From Chrysomallon squamiferum (lineage: Eukaryota; Animalia; Mollusca): a stretch of 64,000 nt of DNA. Where the stretch lies: the NCBI GenBank assembly GCA_012295275.1, contig CM022665.1:40734001-40798000 (forward strand), given 5' to 3'. The stretch's first letter is position 1. Each line of letters opens with the position of its first letter. The notes beneath the pieces were generated by a model. The model had not been told where the DNA came from and did not search any database. It was given only the letters and a program-made list of their open reading frames with translations. Positions 1-30,278 of the stretch are shown here, piece by piece. The position numbers and the translations under genes are program-made.

Positions 1-49
1 ATCCAGAGATATAAACATTAAAATATCATACCAGAAAATCATGTAAAAA

Positions 50-230
50 TCACATTGTTTGGAATTGGAAATAGCATAAAATAACATTGTTTGGAATCAG
101 AAATAATGTAAAAACCACACTGTTACATTGTTTGGAATTGGAAATAAAACATTGTTTGGAACTGGAAAATAATTTTAAAATCACACTGTTTGGAACTGAA
201 AATAATGTGCAATGTTGGATTTGGAAATTT
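50..230. repeat. Degenerate minisatellite, about 30-bp unit, about 6 copies
   Basis: Recurring ACATTGTTTGGAA(T/C)TGGAAA(A/T)A core. Confidence 0.8.
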
Positions 231-337
231 AAAGGTCACTGTCTGAAATTCAAAAAAACTTTATGACTAAAACAGTAAATAATATATTTTTTTTTTTTTA
301 AAAGAAGAAAAGCAACAGTTAAATAGAGAAATTCTAC

Positions 338-349
338 CATAGTCATTCC
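338..349 (-). CDS. Candidate 12-nt phase-1 microexon (GGAATGACTATG, giving W-N-D-Y)
   Basis: Strong acceptor TTACTTCTTTGATATCTTTCATTCAG|; completes T|GG = Trp in frame with the 37-nt exon. The donor GTAGAA is weak. Confidence 0.25.
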
Positions 350-659
350 CTGAATGAAAGATATCAAAGAAGTAATATGTTTCGACGTCACTTCACAAAT
401 ATGTGACAGTGTAAACACTTCTAGGCTCTAAAGGTGATATGTAAATACACTGATTCTTCTACTTAATCTGTCAAAGAGCCATTTGTGATTACATTTACTC
501 TCATCAGTGAAAAATTGATCTTTGGTTTACTGAGATAGTTGGTATTCCACACAAAATACCTAGAACCAAAATCTGAATGTGTGAAAATATTATTTTGTTT
601 TTAGTTTTAGCTGTTTGATTTGTAATCCACATCAGGATTCATGCCACTTGAAACAGTAA

Positions 660-1490
660 TATAAGCAGTAATAAATTATATGATTGCAAATAAAAAAATT
701 AACGAAAATAATGTGTGAATTTGTGAAATAACTAGTAATTATTTATATGACTGCAAATAAAAACATTAATGAAAATAATGTGTGAATTTGTTATATAACC
801 AACAATAAATTACACTATTGCCAAAAACAAATGCTAACGAAAATAATATCTGAATTTGGGATACAATAAATAATAAATTATACAATCGCTAATAAAAACA
901 TTAATGAAAGAATGACTGAATTTGTGAAATAACCAATGTTATATATTAAATGAATCACTGTAACCTGATGAATGTAACTGTTATATGTAACATATTATAC
1001 TGTTACCAATATTCACATTAATGGAAATAATCCATGGATTTGCTTTGCAATATAATCAATAACATGTTTTACGTGGTTAACTACTATTACCAATGCATAT
1101 AATAAAATATATAATCTAGAAATGATATAACCAGTGACAAATTATGATATCACAGCCAGAGATATTATAATATAAGGAGTAATACAAACAAAAATAACCT
1201 CTGAAATTTATCATTTAATCAATAAGAAGTTACCTATAATTAAACTGATAAATATATATAAAAATGAAAAGAACCTCTAAATCTATGATGCAGCTAATAA
1301 CATTATGCACGATAAACTACTCTCATTATCACAAACATTAATAAAAAAACCCCTCTAAAACTGAACTTAATCCTTGAATTTATGATATACCAATAACAAG
1401 TTATACATGATAAAATAGGTTATTTTCATTCGTATAATACAGTTAATAACAAATTATACACAATAAAGTAAATGACATCATAACACACAT
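660..1490. repeat. Degenerate tandem array, about 60-bp unit
   Basis: Recurring AATAAATTATATGA..GCAAATAAAAACATTAATGAAAATAATGTGTGAATTTGTGAAATAACC; clear at 660-940 and decaying rightwards. Confidence 0.65.
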
Positions 1491-1495
1491 TAATG

Positions 1496-1790
1496 GAAAT
1501 AACCTCAACAACTGAAAACAACCTCTAAAACTGAAAATAACCTCAACAAATGAAAAAACCTCTAAAACTGAAAATAACCTCAACAAATGAAAACAACCTC
1601 TAGAACTGAAAATAACCTCAACAAATGAAAACAACCTCTAAAACTGAAAATAACCTCTACAAATGCAAACAACCTCTAAAACTGAAAATAACCTCAACAA
1701 ATGAAAACAACCGCTAAAACTGAAAATAACCTCTACAACTGAAAACAACCTCTACAGCTGAAAAACAACCTCTAAAACTGAAATTAACCA
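1496..1790. repeat. 18-19-bp minisatellite with alternating (dimeric) units
   Basis: Alternation of GAAAATAACCTCAACAAAT and GAAAACAACCTCTAAAACT. Confidence 0.9.
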
Positions 1791-2070
1791 CTGAATTTAT
1801 GACACAACCAATAACTAGAAATGTCATTATCACACACATTAATGAAAGAGCTTGTGTTATTAGTTTCTGACTGCAGTAATAGCTGCTTGCTAACAATGAT
1901 GTCTTCAACCTGCTGCCTGTGTTTATCGTGTTTATTTTTTTTTTTTCTTCTTCTTCTTCTCATTAGTTTTACGATAACGTCCATGCACTTCCGAATTATC
2001 TTCCAATGCATGAACATCAAACGACCTTCTGCGAGATGCTCAGTGCCACAGTGTCGTCAGCATGGCTTAC

Positions 2071-2107
2071 ATGTAATTGCATTGTCAGTTACAGCTTGTC
2101 TGTACGT
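2071..2107 (-). CDS. Candidate 37-nt coding microexon (TYRQAVTDNAIT + 1 nt)
   Basis: CACTTACAG|ACGTAC...ATTACAT|GTAAGC. Phase 0 matches the Met-Val exon. It sits in a complex-sequence island (about 1860-2240) between minisatellites, with a TGCATG about 85 nt into the downstream intron. Confidence 0.45.
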
Positions 2108-2254
2108 CTGTAAGTGTCAAACTCAGTAAGTGCTGAACTGGTAGACATGGAAGGCAAACAGATAATGTTTAATTGCACAGTGATAGTGTTCGCTGTGAGG
2201 TGCTTAATGACCTGGCATCGTGTGCAGTTTATTTGTATGAGTTTAGAAACCACT

Positions 2255-2880
2255 TTATTAAGTACTTAAAACCTGCGACATACTATTTTGTGTTCGTTAC
2301 ATTTGTATGTATATTGGTTACAGTGGTATCTATGGTTATATTGGTATGCATGCTGTTTGTTATGTACTGGTATATGTTACACTGGTATGTATGTTAGTTA
2401 TACTGGTATATGTTAGTATATATGTTGGTTAAATTGGTATGTCTGCTGGTTACTCTGTAACCTATATGTTACTTACATTGGTATGTATGTTAGTTACTGG
2501 TATATGTACTGGTTACACTAGTATGTATACTGATAACAATGCGATGTATGCTGGTTACACTGGTATGTATGTTAGTTACACTAGTATGTATGTTGATAAC
2601 AATGCTATGTATGCTGATTACACTGGTATGTATACTGGTTACACTGGTATGTATGTTAGTTACACTAGTATGTATACTGATAACAATGCAATGTATGTTG
2701 GTTACACTGGTATATATGTTGGTTACATTGATGTCTGCTGTTATACTGAAACCTATACAGTGTACATTATAAAGTAGGTTACACTGGTATATAAGCTGGT
2801 TACAATGGTACATGTGGCTGTTACACTGGAATATGTGCTGGTTACACTGGTATACGTGCTGGTTACAACATATGTATGCT
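2255..2880. repeat. 21-bp minisatellite
   Basis: Unit about GGTTACACTGGTATGTATGCT, with periodic GATAACAATGC variants. The unit length is a multiple of 3, which explains the spurious ORFs on both strands. Confidence 0.92.
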
Positions 2881-3241
2881 GTTTACATTTTAATGAATCT
2901 TTTTATGTAAATTCAGTAACAGCAGGAATCCTTTGTAAATCATTAATTCCATTTTTAGTTCTTCCATTTTTATATGTTTTTCTCTTTTTTTATGTTTTCT
3001 GTCTTCTCTGCTGTTGTTTTTTCACTCACTTTCTGAACAATGTCAAGTAAATCGATGAAGACTTCTGTTTAACATGAAAACAAAACATCAGAGTGCTACA
3101 TGTAACCAGAATTAGAATATAACAGCATTTTTAACATTTTATTATTGTTTGAATTATGCATTGCTTTTAATTTAGGATTATTTTGTAAATATGCATGTGT
3201 GAATGTCTGTGTATATGTGCATGTGTATGTGTGTCTGAGTG

Positions 3242-3279
<38 letters not shown>

Positions 3280-4179
3280 GTGTGTGTGTGTGTACACATA
3301 TGTACTTGTGCATATATATGTTTGAGTGTCTATGAAAATATTTGAATATTTATGAATTTCGTCTTAGTAATAACATTTTCCATACATATACAAGCAAAAT
3401 CAGATTAGTCTTATTTATTTATTTATGAGTAAAAATATTATCTGGTATTCAATTTATTTTTATTTTTGTATTATTTATTTATCATAAATCACTTCTGCAA
3501 AGTCTTAGAACAGAATTCTCTGAGAACAACAGTTTTTAAAAAAAATATAAAAAATGACATTATCACCATTACCATCATAAAAACAGCCATTTACATGTCA
3601 CTTTCTGATGACTTTTATTATGAACAATGCAATAAACTTTAAAAAAAACCCAGAAGCTTTCAAAAATCTAGAAGCAGTTATTTCCTGTTCTACATCTATT
3701 GAAAGTAAAGCTTCTGGGTCAAATCCGCTATTAAATTTGCTTTCATTATGATGAATATAACTTCTAAAAACTGAATTTTATTTTTAAAAAATAAAATAAA
3801 TAAAGAAAAAGGACTGAAAATCTACTACATGCACTTGCCCCAGAACTGACAAGCATATAGAACAAGCATTAATTTTTTTTTTTTTTTTAAAACCTATTCT
3901 GTACAAAATACACAGAGATGAGAAGAAAAAAAATATTATGATGAAAGAGAGAGAAAAATAAGCCTAACACCGAGTAATTTCTGTTTAAGAAAATCAATGT
4001 ATGAAAGCAGAAATCAATTGAGTTGTTAAGAAGAGTTACAAATAAGGAATCTGTATTAAGCTGTGCTTCATTATATTTGGGAAACATGAAAGGGCAATTT
4101 GCAGCTGTATGCAGCAGTGAAGATTGATTCAGTTAGAAAATAGGTAATTAGACATCAGCTGTCAGGTAAGCACAATAAA

Positions 4180-4680
4180 TAATGAATCAGTCAACATCAA
4201 TACTAAATAAACCAGTCTGCATCGATAAAAAAATTCTCTGGTCATAATCATTAAACCAGTAGTTCTATCAACATAAAACTTAATGTCTACAATCAACATA
4301 AAAAAAAAAAAATGGCTGGTCACAATCATAAAACCAGTGGTTATATCAACATAAAACCTCATGTTTGTTTCAACATAAACATTTTTTTTTAAATTACTGG
4401 TCACAATCATAACACCAGTAATTTGTATCAAGATCAAATCATTTGTTTGCATCAATATAAAAAAAAATACTAGTTACAATAAAAATTTGTTGTTCTGCTA
4501 ACAGTAGCCACATGGATACATCAACATTTAAAAAAAAAAAAGTAATAAATGCTCTGGTCACAATCATAAAACCATAAAAATTAATGTCTGCATTAACATA
4601 AAAACATGTCTGCATTAACATAAAAAAAATCCCACTAGTTACAGTAATAAAGTCTTCATTTTGTATCAATAAAAAATGAC
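4180..4680. repeat. Degenerate tandem repeat
   Basis: Recurring CTGGTCACAATCATAAAACCAGT and ATCAACATAAAA motifs. Confidence 0.6.
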
Positions 4681-6519
4681 TTGTCTATATAAACATAAAA
4701 AAAAAAAAAAAAAAAACTCTACATCAATATATATAAACTATGGGTCTGTTATGAATATAATTACAACACTAAATATATCAATAAAATAAAAAAACTGTAT
4801 CAATAAAAAACAAGAAAAAAAAGAAAGACAAAACAAAACTATATCAATAAAAAGAAAAAGAAAAAAGCTAATTTACATCAACATATAAAAACTCTGATCC
4901 ACATCAGCAAGAAACCATCAACATGAACATAAAACTACTATTAAAACAGTGCAACTCTATACTTTACAAATCTGTATCAGTGTTAAAAAAATACAGCACA
5001 AGTCTATTTCAGAATACAGTGATAATAATGATAATAATAATAATAGCAGCAGTAATAGTAGTAATATTATCATTAACAAAAACAACAATAATAAGAAACA
5101 TACTCAGACAATACCTGACCACAACAAACTGCCAGTTATAACCAAATTTATGTTTTTCAAGTTCCAACAACTTTTGTCATGAATCTTATGGTATTAAAAC
5201 ATACTTCCTATTTTTTAAAGTTTGACTAAATGTTTTTGAGGTGTTTTTATTTTTTGTTTCTTTGGTCCCCCCCACACACACACATGCATATTAGTATATT
5301 CATGTATTAGATTCTAATATGTATGCAGATGACACACATTTTTACAAAAGTAACTATACACATCCATCTCAATTACAGCACATAATTTGTCAGCAAATAT
5401 ATTTTCATGGCAGGTAAAATATCATGTTTAATGACAAATGGGAATAAAATGAAGATAAATGTTTATCATTTTATGAAACCCAGCTTTTATAACTGCTAAA
5501 AACAGACAAATAAACTAGATATAAAAATCACTTTGTCTATCTGATCACTTAATTTAAAGTTTTATCTTTAAATATATAATTAAATTCAACGAGTTACAGT
5601 TTGGTTATGTCTGTTTTATATTCTAATCAAAATGATTATGTTACAAATTATACACTTTATGTTTTGATGTAGATTTAATTAAACTGTCCTTTAATACTAA
5701 TTTGAGAAACAAATTGGGTTATTTTTTGCTCTGTATTCTAATAAACTCTTTTATGTTTCAATTTTTTATTTCATTTTTGGCTGTTGTTCTTGTCATTCAG
5801 TCTTAGTAATAATAAAGTATAAAAACAAAAGAGTACAGTTTAAAATTTATTTGTACCATTTTAACAAATCAGTCATTTCATTTTAAAATTTAAAAAAAAA
5901 AATAAAAAAATAAAAAAATCAATCAGCCATCCATTTTGAAAAATGCATATATATTGGCTAAAGGTTCAAGCATATTTGTACTGGGCATTCAATCAATGAT
6001 CCACTGTTCAATATTAGAAAACTAGTCAGACAGAAGACATGAGGCAATAGTCACACACCTTTCCATTTAGCTGTTATTAAGAAGAGATCCTAGTATCTGC
6101 CAGCCAGAAACCAGTGGCTTAACCACTCTGTTTAAGACTAATTTGGAGTGGACAAGATCAATGGATTCTCTATGTACATCTATTACTTACTGTGGTCAGT
6201 GGTTGACAGGCAGTTAAATCTATCAGAAAATCAATTTACACAATTTGCTACTTTTGCCGATGTCCAACTGAAGTTCATTAGCTCACAATTATCCATGACA
6301 GACCAATCACTTCATTTTTACTGTAGACATTAAAACCCATCATTTTTTTAAACATTATACTGCCTTAGACGCGATCAATACATTTTATGTAACCTGGCAT
6401 CTTCTTGCAGTACTGTTCACACTTTGGAGTCATTGTGTTTCAGTGCCCCACAACAGACATATATATATATACGTTCATACTGAATGTTTATTCAAACATA
6501 TTTGCATGATGATCAAATG

Positions 6520-6654
6520 AATAAATAAATGAATGCTTAACGGCATTTTAATACTAACAATTAATATAAAAAAATTTTGTTATATTGTGAGACAGGACAT
6601 CTGATGATTTCATTCTATGGGTTACTCTCATTAACGACCAGCAAGGTTACATAC

Positions 6655-6655
<1 letters not shown>
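6520..6655 (-). mobile_element. SINE 3' fragment, reverse orientation
   Basis: ATGAATGCTTAACGGCA...ATGGGTTACTCT...CAGCAAGG matches the reverse complement of the recalled SINE tail. Confidence 0.35.
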
Positions 6656-6697
<42 letters not shown>

Positions 6698-7480
6698 TGT
6701 ATCCTTTCTCTTTCTCTCTCCCCCTCCTCTCTCTCTTTTTTCTTTCTCTCCCATGTGAACGTACATACAAAAGTAATATTTTCCTGCCTACGGGAAGATA
6801 CAAGTAAAAGAACTCTTATTGCTAACAGAAAATAATCATCCTGCTTGTGTCAATGGGTTTCCTCTTTGATAATCTATTATTGCCTTTAACAAAATATAAT
6901 GAAAGAAGAGCAATATGTGTTGAGTGTTATCAAATAAAATATTTCTTCTGTCCTCAAGTAACAAAGCTGCAGTCTTTTATAAACCTCTTAGCTACAGCCC
7001 ACTTTTGTCCAGTGGTCAGTGACAAATGGACAGTTAGAAGTAACAGAAAATCAATTCAAACAATTTGTTTTTATCTCTATTCCTTGTCTGTCATTTGTTT
7101 TCTTTGTTTTCTTTGTTTTCTTTGTTTTCTTTTTACTTCTTCTTTTTGTTTTTATTCTTTTTTAAATTTATTTATTTATTTCGTGTTAACATTCTGCTGC
7201 AAAGCATATGTCACAGTAACCTAAGATGGCCTGCAATTAAATAATGTTCCAGTGAGTTAGAAAATAGCCATTTCTCTTTTTCACCTTCTTCTCCAATAAA
7301 CATTTTGTTATTGATTCTGGCAACCCAGATCTCAGAGAACGAACAAATAGAATTATCACTTGGCTGTTTCGTTTTGGGTTCCAAATTGCCATAGACAGGG
7401 CTTCTACAAAACCAGACATGATGTGGAACTTTTGTGTGTGATCACCGGTTTAGGTAATGGCCAGGGGCTAATAATATTAA

Positions 7481-7486
<6 letters not shown>

Positions 7487-7550
<64 letters not shown>
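7487..7550. repeat. (GA)n microsatellite
   Basis: Perfect dinucleotide run. Confidence 0.97.
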
Positions 7551-7553
<3 letters not shown>

Positions 7554-8639
7554 TGATAGAGAGAGACATAACAGAAAGATTGAGAAATTGAGTAAAAGAC
7601 ACAGAGAGACAGGGAGTGAAAGAATGGCAGAATGGCCTAGAGAAAGAGAGTGAAAATCTTGCACACAGAGAGAAAGAAAAATCAAAACAAAAAGAACAAG
7701 GTTTAAAAATTAATGATACAAAAACATTTAGAAATAAACTCCACCTCAGTGATAATAAACTGAAACAAAAACATAGAACTGAAACTATACAGTAAAACGT
7801 ACAATGGCCAGAAGTCTCCTGAAGTACAGAACTGAATATCTTATGTTAACTTAATTAAGATCTAGTGACATGCCTTTGAGGAATTAATTCTCAGAATATA
7901 TACATTTTTTATGTCACACAGTATTGTGTTTTTGTAAACTTAGATATTTATTCAATGAATTTGCCAACAAAAAAAAAGGAGAGAGACAAAGAAAGAAGAA
8001 AAATATTTCAATGGTTAAGTCAGATATCTTAAGATATTTTGCTGTGTTTTGAACTTAGACAATTTTCTATTATATTTTATTATACAGAGAAGATTTATTA
8101 ATAAGTTTCTGTTTGCGATGCTGTAACTTATAATATGATTACCTGGTTTGTATGTGTATTTAATAAATATGTGTGTGTGTGTGTGTATGTTTGTCATACA
8201 TGTTTGTATGTGTGTGTATATATATATGTAAATGATTATGAAAATCTAAAGACTTTCATTTTCCAAAAACACCAAAAAAAACATTCTTAATCAAGCTCTG
8301 ATTAACTTCATTTGTAATATATTCATGTCATCCCTGCTGATAAGACTTTCACCAGAATTCTTTAAAAAGTATTTAACAAAATACAGTAATATTTTGTAAC
8401 TGGAATAGTGATTAAATGAAGATGAGCACTGTATGACGATGTGAACAAAATTAGTTTTACAAAACACTGCATTGTTCTCATGTCAGTGACCAGAATAAGT
8501 CTTAATCGTTACATTTTTTTTTTCTTTTCTTTTCTTTTTTGCTAGAACAAAAAGAAGAAAAATTGATTTATTATAAACTCTAGGAAATCTGAAGAGGTAT
8601 TAGCCGTATTAACCTTTTGAATACCTTTAGTTATCTCTC

Positions 8640-9380
8640 TGTATTAGTATGATTTTGACTTTTCTTATGCCTACAGGTACCAGTTTCATGGTCAAAACAT
8701 TAAGTTTTAACAGAATCTTGGGAATATTATGTAATATTTCTGTTAATCCAAGACAGTTCCTAGATATTCTAACCTCTAAAGCACATTTTTAGTGTCAACT
8801 ATATTTATTGGTCATATTAACTATGGTGACTTCTTTTAAGATCAAAGTAATCTGAACTGTAACAGAATCATCTGAATATCACATCATATTTTCATCAATT
8901 CTGTATGTAATCTTAAGAGTAACTTTAGTGTATACTATAATTACTGGTCATGATTTTAACTTCCCCTGTACCTGAAGGGACTTCTTTCATGGTCAAAATA
9001 TACTCAGTTATAACAGAAACGTCAACATATCGTATTTATGTTTGAGTTAGTCCAGTAAGATTCCTGGATATTCTGAACTCTAGAGTATGTTTAGTAACCA
9101 CTTTATTTACTGGTAATGATTTTGACTTCCCTTGAACCTACAGTTACCAGTTTTGTGAACATACCATACCGAGTTAAACAAAATCTTCAGCATATCACAT
9201 ATTTTTATCAGTCCTATGTGTTGTCTGGGTATTGTAATCTCAGAGTAAATTTAGCAACAGCCATATTTATTAGTCATAATTTTCACTTCCTTTGTTGTAC
9301 ATACAGTAATGTCAAAATATACTCAAGTTATAACAGAATCTAAAAAAGAACGTATCATGTGTTTGTCAGTCCTGTAAGAT
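8640..9380. repeat. Degenerate tandem array, about 150-170-bp unit, 4-5 copies
   Basis: Recurring GGTCATGATTTT(G/A)ACTTCCC...GGTCAAAATATACTCAGTTATAACAGAATC...ATATCACAT...CCTGGATATTCT motifs. Confidence 0.65.
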
Positions 9381-10457
9381 GTATGCTCTTATAATACATC
9401 AGCAAAAATATAAGATAAACAAAATATAAACCAATAACAGAAAAAACAAGAATTTTTTTCTTTCTTTTTGTTTTTTTTTTTTTTTTTTTTTTTTGACAAA
9501 TATCATTTTATGTTTTCCAGTCAAATTTTTGTTATTTTATTTTTCTCCCATAACTCGAGGGTCAATAGTTCTCAGTCTTAATAACAAGGAGGATATTTTC
9601 ATGACACTTGTTATCACTTTAATATACACCACACTCATTAGACACTGTCAGGTGGAGGGAGGTTTTTGTCACAAGTGTCAACAATGTCTGGACAATCAGC
9701 GCTTTTCTGACACCTGCAGAACGATCATGAAAATAATGGTCTGGAGAAGTCTCTGAATCTAAATGTCTTGTGTGTGTTATCGATATGCATGTACATACAT
9801 GCACACATTTATTCATATACATACACGCATTTATTGATACACACACACATTTTTATTAACACACACACACACATAAATGTATATGTGAATGTCAGTGTAT
9901 GTTTGTGTTTGTGTGTGTGTGTGTATGCACTCATGTGCATGTGTGTATGTGTGAATGTGCATGTGTGCATGCATGCATGCATAGTATAGTGACCAAAAAC
10001 ACACTTGTCTTGCTTGTATAAGTAGGTTTGTGTGTTTGCACAGTTTGAATATGTATGCAAGTCTCAAACTGTGTATGTACGTATCTACACGTAAATGCAT
10101 ATATTAATGAATACATTACGTAACTGTATTAATGAATAAGATGTACATGTTTTGCATAAACAGACATAAAAGTACATTTCCTCTGACTCATTATTAAATG
10201 ATTACAACAACTCAATAACTGCTTCATCGCTGCAGCTTTTCCCTACTCACAACAAACAGCTTAACAATAAATAACCCACCCCACCCCCTTAAAAATCAAT
10301 GACGCATCGAGCGATGTACACATGCCACACAGGAAGAAAGAACAAAAACAGAAATTAAAATAATTCTCTCCTCTTTCCACTCTAAGCAAGTTAATTAAAT
10401 AAATATTTTGCCACAGACTTGGAGAGATCACCAACTGTCTGTAACAGGAAGACTCAC

Positions 10458-10724
10458 CACCATGGATTAGAACTGCATACTACTGTCTTCCAGTTGGTAT
10501 ACACACACCACATGATAATCACTATTCTGGCTTCATCGATTAGTATTGATGTTCCTCTGGCCCTCCAGGACAGCACTGATTTGGCGAGACCTTTTGGAAG
10601 TGTTTATCTTTAATGTGGGCTAACTCGTTTCTGTCACCGATTCCGAACTGTGCTGGATCAAGCCCCCATCAGAAATAATTAGCGAAGACAGCTTGGAGAT
10701 TGTCAGATCCAGGTTAAATTGGAT
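10458..10724 (-). other. Candidate 267-nt mostly non-coding exon ending in a putative start (ATG GTG = Met-Val) of a downstream minus-strand gene
   Basis: Minus strand reads TATTAACTTTTTGGTTAG| at the acceptor and ATGGTG|GTGAGT at the donor. It is a high-complexity, GC-richer island among repeats. There is an in-frame TAA just upstream of the ATG and no frame is open across the exon. Confidence 0.55.
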
Positions 10725-10749
10725 CTAACCAAAAAGTTAATAAGTACAG

Positions 10750-11470
10750 TATCAATATAATTTTTCAGTATTAATACAGTGTTAGCATCAGCATAATTTC
10801 AATATTAATACAGTTTTAGCATCAGTATAATTTCAGTATTAATACAGTTTTAGCATCAATATAATTTCAGCATTAATAGTATTAGCATCAATATAATTTC
10901 AGTATTAATGCAATATGAGTATCAACATAATTTCAGTATTAATGCAGTATGAGTATCAACATAATTTCAGTATTAATGCAGTATGAGTATCAATATAATT
11001 TCAATATTAATGCAGCATCAGTATCTGTATAACACAGCTTTATTAGTAGTATATCTTCATTTTTAATATTAATATATTTGTATTAGCACTGGTATGGTTT
11101 TAACTGGAACATAATGTTATTAATATAAGCTTCATTATCAGAATATCTTCATTCTTAATATTAATATTTTTTGTATTATCAACTTAATATGGCTTTGACT
11201 GTGACACCAGTGTAAATTCAGTATTAACAGAGTTTCATTATCAGTCTGTCTTCATTCTTAACATTAATATATTTGTATTATTAACGTGACATCGGTATGG
11301 CTTTAACTGCAACATAAGTGTAATTTCAGCATTAATACAGTTTCATTATCAGTATATCTTCATTTTTAATATTAATATGTATGTGTTATTAACTTAATAT
11401 GGCATTAACCGTGACACTAATGTAATTTCACTATTAATATAGCTTCATTACTATTGTTAACGTTAATATA
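10750..11470. repeat. 29-30-bp minisatellite grading into a longer degenerate repeat
   Basis: GCATCAATATAATTTCAGTATTAATACAGT repeated about 9 times (10750-11030), then recurring TTCATTATCAGTATATCTTCATT.TTAATATTAATAT blocks. Confidence 0.85.
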
Positions 11471-13127
11471 TTTTATTATCCCATTAACTTTATTACATTT
11501 ATGACTGAAATGTCTCCTGTATTGATGTAGCATTATCATCCAATTAACTTTGTTATGGTTATGGCTTAACAGACTTCGTAACTTCAGTAGTGACACAGCA
11601 TCATTATCAGTTTAATTTCAGTCTCTAATTTTCACTGTTTTACTTTGCCCGCTGACAAATTTCCTGTTCTAGCTGGGTCTCTACAACTCATGAATTAAAA
11701 GTGTATTAAAGAATGCAAAAAGAAACTGATAAAATTCTATTTTCATCTTTAAATGTCTCATCTACGTCTGCATTATTATTTTTTTTACTCTCACACATCC
11801 AGGGAATTCCCTACTAACAACAGGCTTACATTCAGATCAATTGGATGTAAATCAAAATGGATGATATTTCACAATTTATTTAAGATTATTTGTTAGGAAA
11901 TATTACCCCATTTTCTTTTCTTTTTTTTTATCTATTTCACTTCTATGGTAACAGAGTGCAGCCAGACAGGAAATATGAAACGGAAATGAATCATGATATT
12001 TTAAAAATATTTTCTCTCATTTTTCTTTTTCTTTTTCTTTCTTTCTTTCTTCATTTATTTATTTATTTATTTAATATTTTGGTTTTTTAATGGTTTTATT
12101 TGTTGTCAAGCTTGTCAGTAAACACAGATGTAAATCACAAAAGCTGTGAGTAGAGGACTAACTGAAGACAATAAATCTTTTTTGAAAAATAACTCATGAT
12201 GTGCTAACAGCAATATTCCTCTTTCAGTGACTCAGCTGCATGTTATGTTCTCTTTTATATACATATAAAGAAAACCTACACTATACCCAGAATTTTGAAA
12301 ATAAAACACATTTAAAGAAATGCAGATGTCTCCTATAGTCATTTTACTTATCATTGTATACCAAAAAAAAATATTCTTACAACAAGCAATTCAACCACAG
12401 AAATTAGTATTAACACCAAGTTTAATAATTATTATATAAAATATTTAAATATCTTCTAAAAAGCTTTCATCAAAATTTATAAGAGTTTAAAAAAAAATGT
12501 AGGCATATCCATGACACTGATGTTTCTTATCAGATACATTACGACATTACATCTACTGCATTATGACAATTTAAGTCAAATTTTTAAAATAATAAATGCA
12601 AAATAAACAAAAATCTAAAATCTTCTTTTAGTTGATGAAAAATGGTTACAGTGGATGTAAATGATTGTATTAGAGAATTAATACACGGAAGATGTAACTA
12701 AACTGATATACAGGATTCATGGATGAAAACAAGAATTGTATAACTAAGACATATGTTTATTGTAAATTATTCTTTTCATAATTGCTCACATTCACTGAAA
12801 GTTCAATCACATCCAAACTGGGCACATTTCCAAATGAACTGGTGAATTTATAAACCATATGTGCTTATATATATATATATATATATATATACTAACTAAT
12901 ATAGTTTGAATGTCAAAAAAAAATAATATCTGAAACATTGTTATAACCCATACCAAAATATACTAGTGAAATAAATATTATCTGTATCTTTACCAAATAT
13001 ATGGATTTGTGCAGTCTGAAATACACAAGTCAATGCATTTATCTTACATAAGAAATGTTCTACTCTGGGCAGCCTTCATGTATATGTTGCCAACCTAACA
13101 TTTGTTTTTAATTTTCTTTATTATCAG

Positions 13128-13129
<2 letters not shown>

Positions 13130-13200
<71 letters not shown>
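13130..13200. repeat. (CA)n microsatellite
   Basis: Perfect dinucleotide run. Confidence 0.97.
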
Positions 13201-13202
<2 letters not shown>

Positions 13203-13256
13203 ATATTCTTTTTATTAATTCAACACTTCAAATTTTTCCTACACAATACTATATTC

Positions 13257-13287
<31 letters not shown>

Positions 13288-15201
13288 AAAAAAGACATCT
13301 CCAAACTAAACCCAACATAAATCAAACATCAGCCGACTTCTTCTTTCCCTTCTGCCAATGCATGATGTAATGGCTACCATAATGCTTTGAAAAACAGTAG
13401 CATATCAATCAGTGTAATAAATGATTTGAAGAGGACCTCTATGACACGACTCTCCCAGAGTGTCTGTGTGAGGCACAATAACACACATTACAAACTCTGC
13501 CTAATGAATAAAAATCTAATGTCAAGATTGCCAGTCTGATAGACAGCGAGGCATTCAGTCATGCAAAAAAAAAAATGATGGGATATTTGTGAATGTGAAA
13601 CAATCTCTAGTGAAACTGGATAAAGAAAACTTATGTAAATTACACATCACAGATTTGATGTGGAGGGTTTTTTAAAAAATAAATAGTTACTGATCTGTAA
13701 ATGTATGCTTTTGTCATTTTTTTTTTTTATATATATATTGTGTATGTATGTGATATATTATGTGTTATGTATACATTTCTCTCTGTGTGTGTGTGTGTGT
13801 GTATCTATATCTATTAATATATATATATATATATATATAATGAGTGTCACTGGGTGTGTGTCACTGGATGTTGATATTATTACATTTTATAATTTTATAA
13901 TTTTATTATTATTATTATTATATACATATATAAATGGATACTCATATTTCATTTTATTACAGCAACATACATATTTCTGTGAATGTTATTATGAAAATTG
14001 TATATATATATATATATATATCATAAACAGCCCATGCACTTCTACATGCAGATAAATTAATGAAAAACAAAATACAAAAACATGAAGAAAAAAAAATTTA
14101 ACTTTGTAGTCTCGTAAAACATATATCAATCTTTAATAAAGTAAAAGCATATTGATTTTTGTTTTTAAATTTCAGCTTTTGCAGAGAAACATTTTATCTG
14201 AAAATACTATTACCTTTTTCTTTCTTTCTTTTTTCTGAGGTTAAATTGAAACTGGTGAACACTGAAAGCAAATATCAATTTTCCAGATTTTTCTTTTAAT
14301 TATATTGTTTGGGTTCTTTTTGTTGTCTACAAAAACAAAACAACACAACAAAATAATAAAATTAAGTTAAAATTAAACAAGAAGTTTCTTTTTTATATTT
14401 TTTTCCATCTCTCTTTTAGTTTCTTGCTTTATAATATTATTTACATCATTTGTATGTATGCATGTATATATGTATATCTATATTTGTGTGTGAATAAATT
14501 ACAAATATCTTTACTGTTTTATCTTCTGTTTTAAACTAAATTAAAAATAACCATTGAAAACAAAATCATACAAAATGTTCACTAATAAATAGATGGAGAG
14601 ACAAATGGATATTCTGAATGATAACAAATAACAAAAGGATGAACAGACAAACTGAACGAACCTTTACCAACAACGCAGAACGAAAAATAACTGAATCTAG
14701 ACGAACAAATAGATCATCCTTAATGTTTTACACCAACCATTAATACATCACTAAAACTAAAAGCTTTCTTATTTAAAAATAAAAGTACTGAACTTAATTT
14801 TACACATCAGTGGTCAGATAACAATATTTTTTTTGTAACATGAAATCTGGGTTTTGTCTTCAGTCTTGTGTGGGTATAAGAAGATTTCCAGTTTACTGCA
14901 GATTCTGTTTAATTCTCGGGCTCAGTTACACTAAAATTATGATGATTTCAGTGTGTATCATATTATCATTTCTTACAGAAACTAGTCTTAGTGATACAGT
15001 GATCAAACCATTAAAAACCTGGATGGTCTTGGAATCATAATATATAACCAGCCTCAACCAAAAGAACATTAATTTCTTCTTTCTAACTGACATTCTAACT
15101 TACTAACACTAACATTGTTAAAGGTCAGATGACACACACTCCTTAATTATAACATTTATATGTCCAAGAAAGACAGTCTCCATTCTTTACAAAAATAATA
15201 A

Positions 15202-15232
<31 letters not shown>

Positions 15233-15698
15233 AAAATCTATACTCTTAACAATCCAGCATTAAAAACCAAGGTAACTTTAAAAGTGACATAAAACTGTGT
15301 TTCTCTATTTGTTAATAAAATATTTGGTCATGTAATTTGTCTTAACTGCAGACAATTTCATGCTTGGGTTTTCTGTGATTGCATGCATGTTTCAAACAAC
15401 TGATTGTTAGGGATACCACAAACACACTGCCTTAAACAAATCCATCAGGATTTAAGCTTCTCTGCTGTAGCCATCATGAATCTGAATACTACAGAATTAA
15501 CAAAACTGTTATCTTGCTAAAAGTGATCGATTTAAAACATAAAGAACGGATTTGTTCAGGATAGACAGAAAATAAAATCTGAATCAATTTTCAAGAAACG
15601 GTAATGACTGATGGTTAAAAACAACTGTTAAATTTGACTAGAATTATTACCGACAACATATCCAAATGAATCTGATATTAAAAAAATACATAAAAATA

Positions 15699-15743
<45 letters not shown>

Positions 15744-17589
15744 AATAAATTAATTAATTAATTAAAATATTTACATTTTATATTTTAGATATATCGTACA
15801 AAATCAAACCTGTACAGACAGGATAAATAAACGGAAAATACACCAACACATGACTTAATGATGAAATCCTGTATTAATATCATCATCGTCACCATCATCA
15901 CAGTCATCATCATCATTATTATTATATAATAAAACTTACTTACTAGTCCTTTAGAAAAAAATGAAAATATTTATTCAGTGAGACTGTGTTAAGTGGCTGG
16001 TTTCTACTTATTGAATAAACAAATATCATCTGCCATCTTTTTAACCACACAAAAATACTTAGTCATGTACTTCTGAGTCGTGACATTAGTCAGTGACACA
16101 AGTGTAACTTGAGAACCCACAGATAAATGAAAATAGGAAGAGATAATATCTGATACTAACACCCAACTGTATGGAGTATGTTTCATGATAGACGACTGTA
16201 TAAGTAACTACCATGTGCTGGGTAGATGCATCCGATTTCAAATTTTTATTAAAAGGTCTGATGGAAGTGATATCAAATGCTTTATCCAGTTTAGTTAAGG
16301 CCCCATAGAGATATAATTATTTTAAGGTCAAACAGAGAGAAAATATTGTAAAAATTGTTATCTGTGTAATCTTTATCGACGTTTAATATAATTTAAATTT
16401 TTATAATCATGTTGATACTAATGATATACTGGTATGTGCATTTTGTTTAAAAAATAAAAATTAAAATAAAAATTAAAATTATTTATATATATTAAGATTA
16501 AAGATTTACATATCTATTATTAAAAAACCAAAGATGATGATTAGAAAGAAAAACTTAAATATAAGATAAATATAAACATCTTGCATGTTATCTGAAAAAG
16601 AAATCTTACAAAATATTCACAGAGAAATGAATACTCATGGATGGATAGACTGATACACAGAAACAATTTTAAACTTTTTAACATTCAACAGAACTGTATC
16701 ACGCAAATCTCCATGTCACACAAACATATTTTCTTTTTCTTTTTTATGTTAATTAAGAAGCTCTTTGGTACAGAACTAAATACCATTACAAAGAGTGGAT
16801 CCTGATTATGATTATATCTGGTATCACAGAAGACAAGAAGTATCATTCTCCTCTCTACTGACATTATTTCAAAAACATAAGAAGTCAATTAGTCTCTTCT
16901 ATTCAATGAATAACAAAACAAAGAATAGCTAGCTGCAAATACGTAGCCACAGTTATCACTCTGGCAAATACTAATCTTTATGACAAATGGTTAAACATCA
17001 TACTAAAAAGACTTGTTTGTTCTAGGATCTGATTCTGGCATCAAAGCTTACTGAAGAACTAACTATAAGACTTTTACATTTTAATTTTTCTCCTAATTAA
17101 TACTCTTACATGCTACACATCATGGTAACAATTCAGGTTCTTGGACTGTGAAAGTAAGTGTAGGAATGTTTGAATGATTGATTGAGTGACTGTGATACAC
17201 TCTGAATTATTTATTTCCAGTACACCTGAGTGTGAGATACTTGAATCATATCACCTCTTTCTTTCTTTTCATCCTGATATAACAACATTTTGACAAGACT
17301 ATTATTTATAATCATTCGAACATATATGGAACCAGTTTTAAGATTTTATGCCCCCACTACCCCCAAAATATACATATATTTTAAATTAATGTAAATAAAT
17401 TATAATTTGAGGAATTAATCATTTTAAATTTTAACACCAGTAATGGATTGGTTTTGTTAATATTGCTGCCAGGTCAGGTGACACTAACACAGAGTAGATA
17501 ACATAAAATATTTATAAAAGAGTTTTCTCACATGATATGCCATGGTGAATGTTATCTCTATGGAATATCCAGAAATAAACTGTACCACA

Positions 17590-17990
17590 GAGGTAAAGCG
17601 TTCAATTCTTGTAAGAGTAAATTGTTCAATTCTTGTCAGGGTAAATAGGTTCAATCTTTTCATGGTAAAATGTTAGGTCTTTTCAGGGTAAAACATTCAG
17701 TTTTCTCACGATAAAATTTTCAATCTTTCAGGATACAATGTTCAATCTTTTCAGGGTAAAATGTTCAACCTTTTCAGGGTAAAATGTCCAGTCTTTTCAG
17801 GATAAAATATTCAATCTTTTCAGGATAAAATATTCAATCTTTTCAGGATACAATGTTCAATCTTTTCAGGGTAAAATATTCAATCTTTTCAGGGTAAAGT
17901 GTTCAATCCTTGTCAGATAAAGTGTTTAATCTTTGACTGTAAGTATTCAACAGCTGTTAAGGTACAATGTTCAGTCCTTATCAGGGTATG
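17590..17990. repeat. 20-21-bp minisatellite
   Basis: Unit about TTTTCAGGGTAAAATGTTCAATC, most homogeneous at 17720-17900. Confidence 0.9.
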
Positions 17991-17992
17991 TA

Positions 17993-18220
17993 ATGGGCTG
18001 TTTCTCATTTCAGCCAATGGCCCACAAACATGTATCAAAAGCCATGGCATGTACTTTACTCTGAAATCTTATTGATCCATTTGCTAATCAACAACAGCAG
18101 CCTGTACAACAAAAGCGGTGTGTTTTATTTGTCAGATATCATCATTACCCAAAATAGCTGTGTCTGACACCTAATAACCATTAACATCAAAGTTTGTTAC
18201 GATGTCAATAAAAAAAACAC
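17993..18220 (+). mobile_element. Degenerate MetaSINE-like element (core and 3' tail)
   Basis: ATGGGCTGTTTCTCATTTCAGCCAATGGCCCAC...TATCAAAAGCCATGGCATGTAC...GATCC...TTGCTAATC...TGTCTGACACC.AATAACC resembles, from recall, the molluscan MetaSINE core GGGCTATTTCTCGTTCCAGCCAGTG...ATCAAAGGCCGTGGTATGTGC; A-rich tail. Not verified by a search. Confidence 0.6.
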
Positions 18221-18809
18221 TGGCTCACACATTCTGCCATTCAGATAGCATGTGAAAGCTCCAAAATAAAACATTTTAAAAATATTTTTATTATTTTATT
18301 GTATTCTGTTACCAGTTTACTAACTTCATTAAGGAAAGATAAATAAGCAGTATTAATTTAAATGTAGGACATAGTTTTTATTTCATTCAAGGGTTCATAA
18401 GATTTCATAAAAGTAAGAGAAAATCTAAAGCTAACTGATTCGTTAAATATTTGTACAGTTTTAGAATGAAAATATATACACACACAGGCACAAACACATA
18501 CATACATACACAAACACACTAACAAACATGGAATTAAACACATTTCTAAATTAATGTGAATTATCAGAATCATATGAAAATGCTTCTGACCACATTGAGA
18601 TTTTCCTAACAAAACTTATTGATAGCTGATTGGCCTGTGGAAGAAATGATGGGCAATGTTATTTACAGGGTTTTATTGTTGTTGTTGTTTGTTTTTTGTT
18701 GGTTTTTTTCCAGTTTTTTTTTGTGTTTTTTGTGTGTGGGATCATTTTTTAAATAACAGAATAAACAAATACTTACATATTTGATGTTGACATCTATATT
18801 ACATATTAT

Positions 18810-20699
18810 CTACATCAGGTCTTCATCACTGGAAAGTGCTTCTTCCCTAGCAGATGGCTGACTAAATTCTGTAGCTGATGGTTGACTAATTTCTGCAATG
18901 GATGACTGACTAACTTCAAAAACAGATGCTTGACTAACTTCAGCAACAGACGACTGACTAACTTCAAAAATCAGTTCTTCACTAACTTCAGGAATTGATG
19001 CTTCACTAATTTCAGTAACCGAGGCTTGACTAACTTCAGTGGGTGGAGGATGTTCTGTGTTGGTGTCTGGATTGTCACTTACTGACCTGGCAGCTGATGA
19101 TGAACTCAGCTGACTTGAATGGCTGGAGGAAGATGACAAAACAATGTCTATTTCGTGCCCTCCACTAGGACTAATACTGCTAATGTTGACAGTCAGAATG
19201 TCTTCTTCCAAAGGAATTTCATGTTCCTCTTTTGCATAGATGGGTCTGGGCAGGACCTGACAAGAGCTTTTCCCATCAGTCACACTACTGTCCTCTGGAT
19301 TAAGGTTTTCTTCAGGAAACACGGCCCAGTTTTCTGCTTCAGAAACTTCTATTTCTGTTTGGAAATATAACAGTTTGGGTATTTTTTCCTTTCCTTCAAT
19401 TGGAGCATTCACTTCAGCAATTTTAGGATGAGTCGAAGGAGAAATTGTAGGAGGAATGAGAACTCTCCTGGGCGAAGAAGGTATGATTCCAGTCTCGTCT
19501 ACAACCAGTGCTGAACGCGTGCGACTGAAAAGAATCTCTTCATTGAACTCAAAAACTGATTCAGATTCATCAGAGCTAACTGAAACATTCCTCTCTGTTC
19601 TCAGGGGTTTTGATTTGATTGAGAACTCGTCCGGTGGAAGTGTGATTTTCAACTTTTCTCCTAAATGAAGAGTAGGAGACAGAGGAGAATTCTCTGGTGA
19701 ACTGAGGACACTGGTGTATTCGTCAAGGGTAACAACACTAATGGGAGTTGTGCTTCGGGGGCGAGCAATTGGAGATGTTTTAACTTGCTGCCTTCGTAAT
19801 CGGTTTTCATATGCCTTTCTCTTCGATGGTGAGGTGATGGTGGATGGATCTACCAGTTCTGGAGATAAAGTTAAAGGACTCTGCACAGGGTGGGAAGGTT
19901 TGTCACTGACATGTTCATTTTCCTTAGCAAAACTCTTTTGGACTGGTTGGGTCTTTTTACCTTGGGAAATTTCAAAATCTGATTCTGAATCTGATGATGA
20001 AAAAGAAGCTGTTCTTTGAAGTTGTGGAATATCTTGGTTTGGTTTTGGTGGTGGTGGTATGAAAACAGTCTCAACTTTTCTTCCCTCACTACTTATTTCT
20101 GACAAGTTGCCACTGACATTGCCAGGGTATGGTTCATGTCTGATGTAAACATAATTGTCTGTTTCTTTTTCATAGTCACAACTTGCACAAGCCTGGTTTT
20201 CATTGCATTTATTCTGTAGAACATTGACATCTTCTTGCTGAACACTGGAACTGTCTTCCTTTACTTTCAGCTTGCTGTTACTTTTAACTTTTTTGTTATC
20301 TTTGTCTTTTTTCTTTTCACTTTTTGATGACTCTTTCTTCGAACTTACTTTACTTTTGTCCTTTTTTGGACTTCCTTTCCTTTTATCTGGTTTTGGTGAA
20401 TCCTTTTTAATTGCATCTTTCCTCTTATCAAACTTGAAAAATTCTCTTTTTGGACTTGGTTTTTCAGGCTTCACTGCCTCTGGCTTTGGCTCTTCTTCTT
20501 CTTTAATACAACAGTTATCATTCTCATTCTTCACTGTAATGTTTGTTTCCTCAATAATCTCCTTGTTACATCCTCGCACAGACACATTTTGATGGACTGA
20601 CTTATTTGGCAAATCATCTCCAAGATCAATAGTATCAAACGTTGCTAGAGGTGCTCGGATAAGGAAACTGTCCTTCTGAAATTCTGGAGATTTTTGCAT
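18810..20699 (-). CDS. Uncharacterised single-exon, S/E/P/K-rich, probably intrinsically disordered protein, 629 aa (MQKSPEFQ...EDLM)
   Basis: 1890-nt uninterrupted ORF in AT-rich DNA, with coding-like composition. First in-frame ATG after the upstream stop is at 20699 (context GCGATGC); the ORF track begins 9 nt earlier at a TTG. It lies in a candidate exon 20799..18777. I recognise no globular domain. Confidence 0.82.
   Translation of the reverse strand: MQKSPEFQKDSFLIRAPLATFDTIDLGDDLPNKSVHQNVSVRGCNKEIIEETNITVKNENDNCCIKEEEEPKPEAVKPEKPSPKREFFKFDKRKDAIKKDSPKPDKRKGSPKKDKSKVSSKKESSKSEKKKDKDNKKVKSNSKLKVKEDSSSVQQEDVNVLQNKCNENQACASCDYEKETDNYVYIRHEPYPGNVSGNLSEISSEGRKVETVFIPPPPKPNQDIPQLQRTASFSSSDSESDFEISQGKKTQPVQKSFAKENEHVSDKPSHPVQSPLTLSPELVDPSTITSPSKRKAYENRLRRQQVKTSPIARPRSTTPISVVTLDEYTSVLSSPENSPLSPTLHLGEKLKITLPPDEFSIKSKPLRTERNVSVSSDESESVFEFNEEILFSRTRSALVVDETGIIPSSPRRVLIPPTISPSTHPKIAEVNAPIEGKEKIPKLLYFQTEIEVSEAENWAVFPEENLNPEDSSVTDGKSSCQVLPRPIYAKEEHEIPLEEDILTVNISSISPSGGHEIDIVLSSSSSHSSQLSSSSAARSVSDNPDTNTEHPPPTEVSQASVTEISEASIPEVSEELIFEVSQSSVAEVSQASVFEVSQSSIAEISQPSATEFSQPSAREEALSSDEDLM
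18846..19037 (-). repeat. Coding 24-nt (8-aa) tandem repeat, 8 copies
   Basis: EVSQASVT EISEASIP EVSEELIF EVSQSSVA EVSQASVF EVSQSSIA EISQPSAT EFSQPSAR. Confidence 0.9.
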
Positions 20700-21090
20700 C
20701 GCCAGCAAAAAACATTTGAAAGCAACCTTAGATATTCTCTAATAAACTTCTTCCAGTAAATCATCAACATATAACTGTCCATCCATGGGATTACAATAAC
20801 TGAAGCAATGAAGTAATGAATAACTAAATAAGAACTGTCAGTGTCTTGATTGTATTTTATATGATTTGAAAAAAAAAGTCATTTGCCCAAGTCATCATCT
20901 TGATAATTATAATTATTATCACGGAATTGTCACTTACTAGATGAAATCCCAATGTGATATGCTATAAATAGCTCAGCAACTGTGATCTATAAATGATATG
21001 CATTGTTAAAATTGGTAATGAATATAGGCCTGCAGTCAGAAACGAAAAGGTCTTAGAAGTCAGTCAAAAACTTAACAACATCCAACCTAC

Positions 21091-21360
21091 CGCCTACAAA
21101 AGCCCGAATTTGGCAATCAATCAATGATCCAATATTCTCAAGAAGAACTTGAATTCTATATGCATCGAGACCAACACCACGGAAATGGTGTTCGATGCCA
21201 CGCTAGAGACTATTAATCGATATTCTCTTCCAAGACTTTCTTTCCTTGAACCATTTTTGTTTACGGAAGTGAGGTAATCGCGTAGTTTCGTTTTTCGAAG
21301 ACGGATGTCCAACTATTAAAACCATCATTATATAGTAATACTGAAAGTGTTACTATACGA
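21091..21360 (-). promoter_or_regulatory. CpG-rich promoter / non-coding first exon of the minus-strand unit
   Basis: Local CpG cluster in otherwise CpG-poor DNA; ETS-like ACGGAAGT at 21263-21270; minus-strand donor CG|GTAGGT at 21091/21090 pairs with the acceptor TTCATTGCTTCAG| at 20800. Confidence 0.55.
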
Positions 21361-21869
21361 GCAGCCACAATAATTTCACAAACATTACTTGATTTAGAAT
21401 ATTTTTATTTATTCATTTATTCATATGTTTATTTATTTATTGCAGTTGACTATTTTTAAGTAACTTGTCGTTTTCCAACAATTTTAATAGTTCATAAGTT
21501 TATAAATGAATTTTAAAACTGTCATTTAAAAAAAGAAAGAAAATAGAAACACTAAAAGATAGAAAATATTAAAGCATTCCATGTGGAATTTAGATGTGGT
21601 TACTTGTTATTATTGTTAATGGACTATATGTATTCTTATCATTCATGCAATGCAGTTATGAAGAACTAATAACAAGCCTAAATTATTCCAGCTCATCTCA
21701 ATAAATTAAAATACTTTAATTAAACTATGAGATTATGCAGATGTTTGAAAACATCTTTAAGTAATAAATTATACTGATTTAAAAAAAACCCACAAAAAAT
21801 GCAAAAAAATACATGCTATATATAAAATACAGAAGTGACTTAAATATAATTATTTACATCTGATTGTTA

Positions 21870-22290: not shown

Positions 22291-22717
22291 ACTGTGCATG
22301 TTTTTATTTAACAGCAGAATAAAATAATGTTATTGGCTTGTAAAGTAAAGATAGTGGAAGATGGTAAAGAAATAGTCATTTAATATCATAAGTATTAAAA
22401 TAAACTGTAGCTTGAAATTGAATAAGATGAACAATTCCACATTTATGGTACATAGTAATATCCCAAAATACTTGAGATAACCAGTTTAATTTATTATTTT
22501 TAGTGGATTTTAGATATTTTGGTTTAAAAAAACAAAACAAAAAAACATTGATTAGTTAGCATTATATTTAACTTGCAAGCTAAATAATTTATTTATTAAT
22601 ATACTTTTATAAATGATTAATAGATAATTAGATCTGATATAATTGCAGGATGTGCCATTATGGAATGGAGCAGAAACAGAAGGAAACTTCAACAGATAAT
22701 TTTCAATAAAATTTGAC

Positions 22718-29035: not shown

Positions 29036-29569
29036 AAGAGGAATAACGTCTTAAAATGTTTTTAGTATTATATGGAAAAGCTGCTGGATAATAAGTGCCA
29101 ACAAAGCTGCCAAAAATGTGAACAAATATGAAGTAGCAAAATAAGTTTTGATTATTTTTTTCATGTGATGGTATTGTACATTATGAGATTAGTTAAATAT
29201 ATATTCCTGCTGAAATTATGGGCCAAGAAATTTGCCAAATTTTAATGAAAATATTCATGTAAAATTATTTAATATTTTTGTATTTATTGTCATTGATATG
29301 TTTAGGTGAATAAACTATAATTATTGTCTTAAATTATGTCTGAGTTTTATTTTTGTGATGAAAAAATTTTATAATACATTTTTATAAATGAGATAAATAT
29401 ATGAACAACACTTCTATTTTACTTTTTTTTTTTGTTGTTTATTTATTTATTTATATATTTATTTTAAAGTTCATCTCATTTGATTTAATCCTTTTTTATT
29501 AAATTATTATTTAATTTATTAGTAATATTATTATTAGTAGTAGTAGTAGTACTTTAAATGAACAAAATA

Positions 29570-29797
29570 TCGTATAGCAATATTAGCCATTGTGCATTCA
29601 TAATTACTTTTTCAGAACATCCCGACAAAACCTTAAATCACCAAGGTCGGACATTTCCGATTAATCTTGCGGAAGAAGCCGAACTATTTATTTTCAACGA
29701 TTCTTCATATTTTAATAAATTAGAAAGTTTGGAGTTGTGTCCCTTCTACTTTTATTGTGGTGTACTAGCGTTTTTATTTTTATTTTTTTTTAACAAA
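29570..29797 (+). promoter_or_regulatory. LCLAT1 promoter / 5' UTR
   Basis: CpG-containing island after a long AT-rich tract, with TTTCCG and GCGGAAG ETS-like cores; start context AACAAAATGG. Confidence 0.5.
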
Positions 29798-30278
29798 ATG
29801 GGGGGTTATATCGGCGGTATTTCTTTTTCTGGTCTGCTCTTTTTGACAAGCTTTTTTGGGACTGTTTGTTTTCTTACACCATTAATGCCGTTTGTGTTAT
29901 TAAATCCATGGTTAGCACGTCGGGCTTTCGATTTCTTCTTAACGTTATGGCTTACATATGCGGTGGTAAGTAGTCACAGCAACCGATTAATGACCTTGCA
30001 TTAATAATTATGATGTGAATTAATTAATATGTACGTAATTTGTGGAAGGCAGGTAATGGAAATTATAAGATATCCATTTGGTTTCATTCTTTAATAGTTA
30101 GTAGTGTTCCTTTTTAATTATTAATAGAAATTATTGATAGATAATTATAATGTATGAAAAAATAAGTGCAGAAGTAAAATTTCGATGGCACTAGCATTAA
30201 AAACATGTTGCAGTAGTAATTAGTTTTATTATCCTATGGTAAAACAGTTTTGAATTGCAAAGATCTCAAATATATGAT

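Follow-up and report, generated by a model that had tools for sequence, protein, structure and literature searches.

In the snail Chrysomallon squamiferum, a 64,000-nucleotide (nt) stretch of genomic DNA (GenBank assembly GCA_012295275.1, contig CM022665.1, positions 40,734,001 to 40,798,000; hereafter the window) carried on its minus strand ORF-X, an open reading frame (ORF) of 629 amino acids (aa), within an exon that was spliced in RNA 33 nt past the ORF-X stop codon onto the likely start of stonin. The resulting transcript is probably a dicistronic messenger RNA (mRNA) of the stoned type, with a first cistron other than StnA, and molluscs likely have an ORF-X–stonin dicistronic unit. To our knowledge, few conserved dicistronic mRNAs of animals have two long ORFs, the textbook case being stoned from insects. 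If true, the molluscan version, with its other first cistron, near-equal spacer, and same loss of in-frame Met, would provide a natural replicate for a translation rule that is still poorly understood; it would also point to a pathway, AP-2/stonin synaptic-vesicle endocytosis, for a protein family without a name that spans snails to insects and would put in question the published insect-only status of Stoned A-like sequence.

Structure of the ORF-X locus

The locus displayed the following features:

21091..21360, minus strand: predicted non-coding first exon and promoter region, with donor GTAGGT at 21090 and a CpG observed/expected ratio (CpG o/e) of 1.19 over 21001-21500.
18777..20799, minus strand: exon 2 of 2023 nt, composed of a 100-nt leader, the whole ORF-X, and a 33-nt spacer; the acceptor AG ended at 20800, and RNA contigs were found over the part of the exon up to 20240.
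20635..20782, minus strand: two short, out-of-frame upstream ORFs (uORFs) predicted from the letters, of 45 and 26 codons (first ATGs at 20782 and 20715), overlapping the ORF-X start codon.
18810..20699, minus strand: ORF-X, 629 aa, the proposed first cistron, with homologs elsewhere and with Met at residues 1 and 629 only.
18777..18809, minus strand: initial 33 nt of the 53-nt intercistronic spacer, whose remaining 20 nt belonged to the joined exon.
18771..18776, minus strand: post-stop splice donor GTAAGT (AT/GTAAGT, exactly 33 nt past the TAG), at which an RNA contig branched.
18672..18677, minus strand: AATAAA, 100 nt beyond the donor, a possible end of a monocistronic form.
1..18776, minus strand: intron leaving the window toward the putative first coding exon of stonin; the joined letters were not in the window, which contained no stonin exon by tblastn.
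10458..10724, minus strand: 267-nt candidate exon (acceptor at 10725; end ATG GTG/GTGAGT), not the observed splice partner.

An earlier, sequence-only reading of the window had placed the donor at 21090, the acceptor at 20800, the 2023-nt exon with the whole ORF, the donor 33 nt after the TAG, the acceptor at 10725 with its 267-nt segment, and the AATAAA at 18677-18672, and every one of these signals was found exactly where it had been claimed. The size of contig 5 from RNA run X1 was compatible with a spliced 5' end at 21340 and equally with an unspliced end at 21049. In L001, a bivalve-like genomic homolog, the ORF likewise began within an exon, 3 nt past the acceptor.

Use of the post-stop splice donor

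The region was present in four RNA runs from one study and in one run whose kind was not on record (X5). Assembled contigs of four of these five runs, namely the RNA runs X1, X2, and X3 together with X5, were compared with the window over positions 18740-20240 only. Contigs covered 30/30, 28/30, and 24/30 bins of the region in X1, X2, and X3, respectively. The X1 assembly branched at 18777: (i) a 158-nt contig with a depth of 17.3 departed from the genome with 128 loose letters and (ii) a 250-nt contig with a depth of 5.9 continued into the intron. The 18777 donor is used in RNA, a point that the sequence-only reading had set as a test. Contig depth being a crude measure, the junction contig was about three times as deep as the read-through contig. 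Beyond the joint, the junction contig continued for 128 nt, and no second 5' partner fed into that length (a weak argument from assembly-graph logic); the one joint seen had the ORF-X exon upstream. In X5, one 3550-nt contig crossed the donor unspliced and looked DNA-like.

The 30 visible loose letters had no match anywhere in the 64 kilobases (kb) at up to three mismatches, the best ungapped alignment reaching 18/30; the acceptor therefore lay more than 18.7 kb away or was missing from the assembly. The sequence-only reading had predicted an 18777 to 10724 junction, with which these letters disagreed, as they matched neither the 10724 segment nor the rest of the window. Its core idea, that the ORF exon is spliced post-stop onto the start of a second gene, held up; the identity of the second exon did not, this exon lying beyond window position 1.

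The read-through contig may derive from pre-mRNA, from DNA, or from a monocistronic transcript. A stand-alone mRNA ending at the AATAAA had been named as the competing view: the weaker read-through contig agreed with a stand-alone form, but its size lent no support to an end at 18677, as its 187 loose letters would take it about 120 nt beyond that signal. Two ordinary neighbor genes, with ORF-X transcripts polyadenylated within the intron and the junction arising from incidental read-through splicing or an assembly chimera, would be consistent with the presence of this contig, with an AATAAA 100 nt past the donor, and with a junction found in a single run. Such an arrangement is improbable: the junction sat exactly on a canonical donor, formed the deeper branch, and lay 20 nt ahead of a stonin-like start, and the conserved linkage, the Lingula fusion, and the Met depletion (see below) would need some other explanation.

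Identity of the joined exon

The joined letters read TGA, five codons, and then Met-Ser-Thr-Gly (MSTG), with the ATG 20 nt into the joined exon and the TGA in the stonin frame 18 nt upstream of that ATG. The stop-to-ATG distance in the spliced mRNA was 53 nt, giving a frame offset of 2; the sequence-only reading had estimated a gap of about 290 nt and had taken the ATG GTG at 10463 as the second start, which would be out of the stonin frame if joined to the real exon.

The partner was suggested by Lingula XP_013388524 (P0072), a protein of 1533 aa annotated as one chain, which combined an N-terminal ORF-X region with a mu-homology domain at 1187-1507. A search with its downstream part retrieved 61 proteins, all with a mu-homology domain and several named stoned-B. 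Many mollusc stonins started with MSTGS(F/W)D(D/E)SSNLV; an MSTG start was present in 7/60 stonins and the pattern M..S[FWYC]D[DE] near the start in 35/60, and the chance of an MSTG start within 30 nt was about 1e-4. Judged from this resemblance, from the Lingula fusion, and from the linkage described below, the joined exon most likely begins the stonin gene. In the window itself, tblastn with 25 stonin-type proteins found no stonin exon; the exon-like bits at 9712 and 3064-3030, considered as stonin exons, gave no stonin match.

Linkage of the two genes was also visible in other genomes. In all seven species named in both searches, the ORF-X and stonin homologs had longest contigs of equal size, as did two further ENA pairs. 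Locus tags were consecutive in Potamilus (040122/040121), Mactra (002959/002960), and Elysia chlorotica (016136/016135) and two apart in Babylonia, and the Mercenaria accessions were close. Oysters, mussels, and scallops were among the named stonins and missing from the named ORF-X matches, some unnamed matches of which may be theirs.

The Lingula annotation raises another possibility, an ORF-X–stonin fusion protein made through recoding or a different splice. The two ORFs were not joined in frame, as a read-through fusion of the SALF type would have them; the frame offset and the TGA ahead of the stonin ATG make a fusion through the seen acceptor impossible, and stop read-through from ORF-X into stonin is ruled out by frame. 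A mu-homology domain was found in just one of 36 ORF-X family members scanned (Lingula P0072), and a search for longer forms of the family proteins, itself a weak one, returned none. The single 1533-aa chain may be a merged model of a dicistron, its ORF-X part containing 2 Met in 393 aa and P0075 being a stand-alone relative. A fusion protein is thus very hard to credit.

Methionine depletion in the proposed first cistron

The sole Met of ORF-X after its start was the last residue (P = 2.5e-4 for a Met rate of 1.7%); an internal in-frame AUG was accordingly lacking, which held in gastropods and not in all bivalves. The comparison was extended to the family: 54 ORF-X members had 123 internal Met in 35,326 residues (0.35%), compared to 800/46,850 (1.71%) in the N-termini of 59 stonins, which were similar in composition, and Met was the most depleted of the 20 residues. 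Internal Met was lower in the ORF-X member than in its stonin partner in 9/9 same-genome pairs. Among 18 named gastropods, the count was 19/13,114 (0.14%), compared to 60/5,692 (1.05%) in six gastropod-type stonin N-termini; 14 of these 19 Met lay within 90 aa of the C-terminus, and the median pairwise identity of the gastropod sequences was 36%. Off-frame ORFs within the ORF-X coding region numbered 12, of 1-49 codons.

Proposed translation and evidence opposing it

In the proposed mechanism, stonin would be made by ribosomes bypassing ORF-X. Part of the scanning ribosomes would skip the ORF-X start or enter the two short uORFs overlapping it, would then encounter only short off-frame ORFs and no in-frame AUG committing them to a long product, and would arrive at the stonin AUG 53 nt past the ORF-X stop. 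Carried on one mRNA, ORF-X and the synaptotagmin adaptor stonin would be coupled in a fixed proportion, probably with little stonin relative to ORF-X, and the weaker unspliced form would yield ORF-X alone.

Several points weigh against such a dicistronic mRNA. Regarding the RNA: (i) the X2 and X3 contigs stopped short of the donor, and the junction was seen in one of three RNA runs, as one contig with 30 visible joined letters (four stonin codons); (ii) no RNA piece covered both ORFs; (iii) an unspliced read-through form was present in X1; and (iv) under the mammalian 50-55 nt rule, by which introns downstream of a stop mark an mRNA as a candidate for nonsense-mediated decay (NMD), downstream stonin introns would make the joined mRNA such a candidate, a rule that may not hold in molluscs. 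Regarding other species, linkage was seen from contigs and tags only, in which gene orientation and junctions were not visible. Some bivalve-like members had little or no Met depletion (L001, 13/531; P0058, 13/656; named bivalves, 0.66%), insect-like members had about 1% internal Met, and all Met counts came from related sequences and were not independent.

The distribution of other ATGs also told against efficient scanning. Exon 2 contained five upstream ATGs and the predicted exon 1 four more. Off-frame ATGs were not depleted in the coding region: 25 were present, 23 of them in one frame, compared to 15.9 +/- 2.1 expected; the surplus may be explained by CpG avoidance (C before G 5 times, T before G 79 times). 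The spliced spacer had three ATGs, two of them in one frame that, in the letters visible, stayed open past the stonin start, and one of these two was formed by the splice joint and had A at -3. With two spacer ATGs in a frame that overlaps the stonin start and off-frame ATGs plentiful, stonin output from the joined mRNA may be low.

These ATGs are part of the case for a shared unit working as a splicing or promoter switch, in which the joined mRNA gives ORF-X only or undergoes NMD and stonin comes from isoforms skipping exon 2 or using other first exons, possibly the 10724 segment. ORF-X indeed lay in an internal exon both here and in L001; the 10724 segment was unusually GC-rich; and, in Drosophila, only 45/159 dicistronic loci were exclusively dicistronic (PMC4528330). 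A switch would leave the in-frame Met loss across divergent gastropods unexplained, and the X1 junction contig had no alternative 5' partner evident, although this is weak evidence; a switch is a serious but less likely reading, and bypass of ORF-X on a dicistronic mRNA is preferred.

The 10724 segment was rejected as the start of the second gene: the loose letters did not match it, it had no stonin match, and its donor at 10457 was at chance level (1 observed, 1.3 expected). With 44% GC, a value reached by 0.3% of the 267-nt windows in the intron, 10458-10724 ranked near the top in GC content; it contained two open frames, neither with a Pfam match, and Rfam gave no match over window positions 1-24000. 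The exon-like segments on the minus strand of the large intron (10458-10724, 9712 downward, and 3064-3030) may be alternative untranslated-region exons or part of a nested transcript.

The ORF-X protein and its family

ORF-X had 42 homologs at E <=0.001 among 7990 candidates scored, every named one molluscan, the top match being Gigantopelta aegis with 65% identity. A profile search with the family gave 108 matches, and the named ones examined included Lingula, a spider, a horseshoe crab, a mite, a hoverfly, and a wasp. By these comparisons, ORF-X is a genuine though unnamed protein, largely disordered by prediction, that is widespread in molluscs and has remote relatives among further protostome groups. 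Disorder is predicted by its AlphaFold model (mean predicted local distance difference test score, pLDDT, 48; short helices at 291-304 and 325-332). Pfam had no family for ORF-X, 35 of the 36 members scanned being without any match; PDB gave no match to it, and the ESM Atlas gave no clear match (best score 0.80). Alignments identified three conserved segments:

20625..20654, minus strand: N-terminal motif APLATFDTID, aa 16-25; APLA[TS]F[DE] was present in 51/54 family members.
19440..19823, minus strand: core, about aa 293-420, with an invariant RPRS..P (around RPRSTTP).
19317..19328, minus strand: WxxF motif, aa 458-461, a predicted AP-2 alpha-appendage ligand; W..F was present in 54/54 members.

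The core shared 42% identity with aa 143-254 of Lingula P0072 (pairwise E 3e-16). W458 and F461 were conserved at >=90% in 64 sequences, and the WxxF fell in a predicted disordered region. Passages of two papers on stonins describe WxxF as a ligand of the AP-2 alpha-ear (PMC3393740, PMC5649181). From this motif, the linkage to stonin, and the Lingula fusion, a role as a disordered accessory protein of endocytosis is predicted for ORF-X.

Further observations were made on the homologs and on variation within ORF-X. Over window positions 18851-19039, the ORF-X tail contained a 24-nt tandem repeat in about eight copies, encoding EVSQ-type octapeptides and mostly missing from the Gigantopelta homolog. 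The Patella homolog (P0007) was annotated as 'isoform X2' of its gene. Homologs P0008, P0050, P0207, and P0029 were located on Logan or ENA contigs of 7.6-10.2 kb, roomy enough for both ORFs; P0207 appears to come from an arthropod. A metagenome scan for ORF-X found one locus among 72 candidates, its sequence ending before the stop. Run X5 had a 3-nt insertion in polyproline codons at 20045, and two substitutions at 19264 and 19356 were common to several runs; all three are likely alleles.

Comparison with known systems

The comparison was applied first to Drosophila stoned, a dicistronic gene with a 52-nt stnA–stnB spacer according to a FlyBase table in the supplement of PMC4528330. Its second cistron is described, in passages citing Wall et al. 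2005, as translated by leaky scanning that requires no in-frame internal Met in cistron 1 (PMC2978622, PMC11892635). The two systems shared (i) stonin as the second cistron (putatively so in the snail), (ii) a spacer of nearly the same length (53 nt in the snail and 52 nt in the fly), (iii) a first cistron without internal in-frame Met, and (iv) a first product with AP-2-type motifs. They also differed. The snail spacer was interrupted by an intron exceeding 18.7 kb. The ORF-X family had separate long insect members (hoverfly and Trichogramma). STNA is described in part of PMC3373503 as having a Lys-rich start, a coiled coil, and four DPF repeats, while ORF-X had 0 DPF motifs; at this motif level, rather than by alignment with StnA, ORF-X was rejected as Stoned A.

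STNA is stated to be insect-only in a passage of PMC3393740. A StnA-like layout, namely a Lys-rich start, a conserved EEW..F..MQ.RI segment, and DPF motifs, was found in stonins of molluscs, spider, and brachiopod, within their N-terminal half (P0147-P0205, P0072). Read from layout and not from a StnA alignment, this would mean that a single ORF was split to give StnA and StnB in insects. A broader scheme is a serious possibility, offered tentatively: ORF-X may be an ancient protostome endocytic protein and a third Stoned component, transcribed and translated together with stonin throughout molluscs and present as a fusion with it in the brachiopod, with dicistronic translation by in-frame AUG loss having been used twice at the locus, with ORF-X in molluscs and with StnA split off the stonin N-terminus in insects.

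Leaky-scanning polycistrons, i.e., the Drosophila Snapin locus, silkworm uENF1-uENF2-PP, and green algal bicistrons, resembled the snail locus in an AUG-poor upstream ORF and a short spacer, while ORF-X was depleted of in-frame AUGs only and was 1.9 kb long. Human STON1-GTF2A1L (SALF) likewise involves a spliced transcript linking the stonin gene with a neighbor; SALF is a single in-frame fusion with stonin upstream, whereas snail stonin was downstream and out of frame. Compared to the WxxF AP-2 appendage ligands of the stonin 2 N-terminus and UNC-41, ORF-X had the same disordered chain with a conserved WxxF, its binding being predicted only, but lacked a folded cargo domain, a Pfam or PDB match, and a clear Atlas match. 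No description of an ORF-X–stonin arrangement was found in the literature searched, which comprised papers readable without subscription and so neither the Stoned review nor the original stoned papers; in the part of the Biomphalaria sudanica paper covered (PMC10875847), polycistronic was used of mitochondrial transcripts only.

Other features of the window

Three further ORFs and one compositional change were recorded. On the plus strand, 22649-23243 was exon-like, with acceptor 22648, GTAAGT at 23244, and a 183-aa ORF (22718-23269) that had weak coiled-coil-type Pfam matches only; it was divergently oriented to ORF-X and may use the same promoter region at 21.3-22.3 kb. Also on the plus strand, an ORF at 29558-30004 ended in a hydrophobic segment at a CpG-rich spot and had a weak DUF7535 match only; we presume a likeness to an acyltransferase N-terminus. 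On the minus strand, a 219-aa ORF at 55915-56574, which we take to be PKDCC-like, had an N-terminal hydrophobic anchor and a kinase-N-lobe-like end, with no Pfam match at E 0.1. At about 36500, CpG o/e changed sharply, being mostly <0.5 at lower positions and about 1 at higher ones, which suggests a boundary between methylated and unmethylated DNA.

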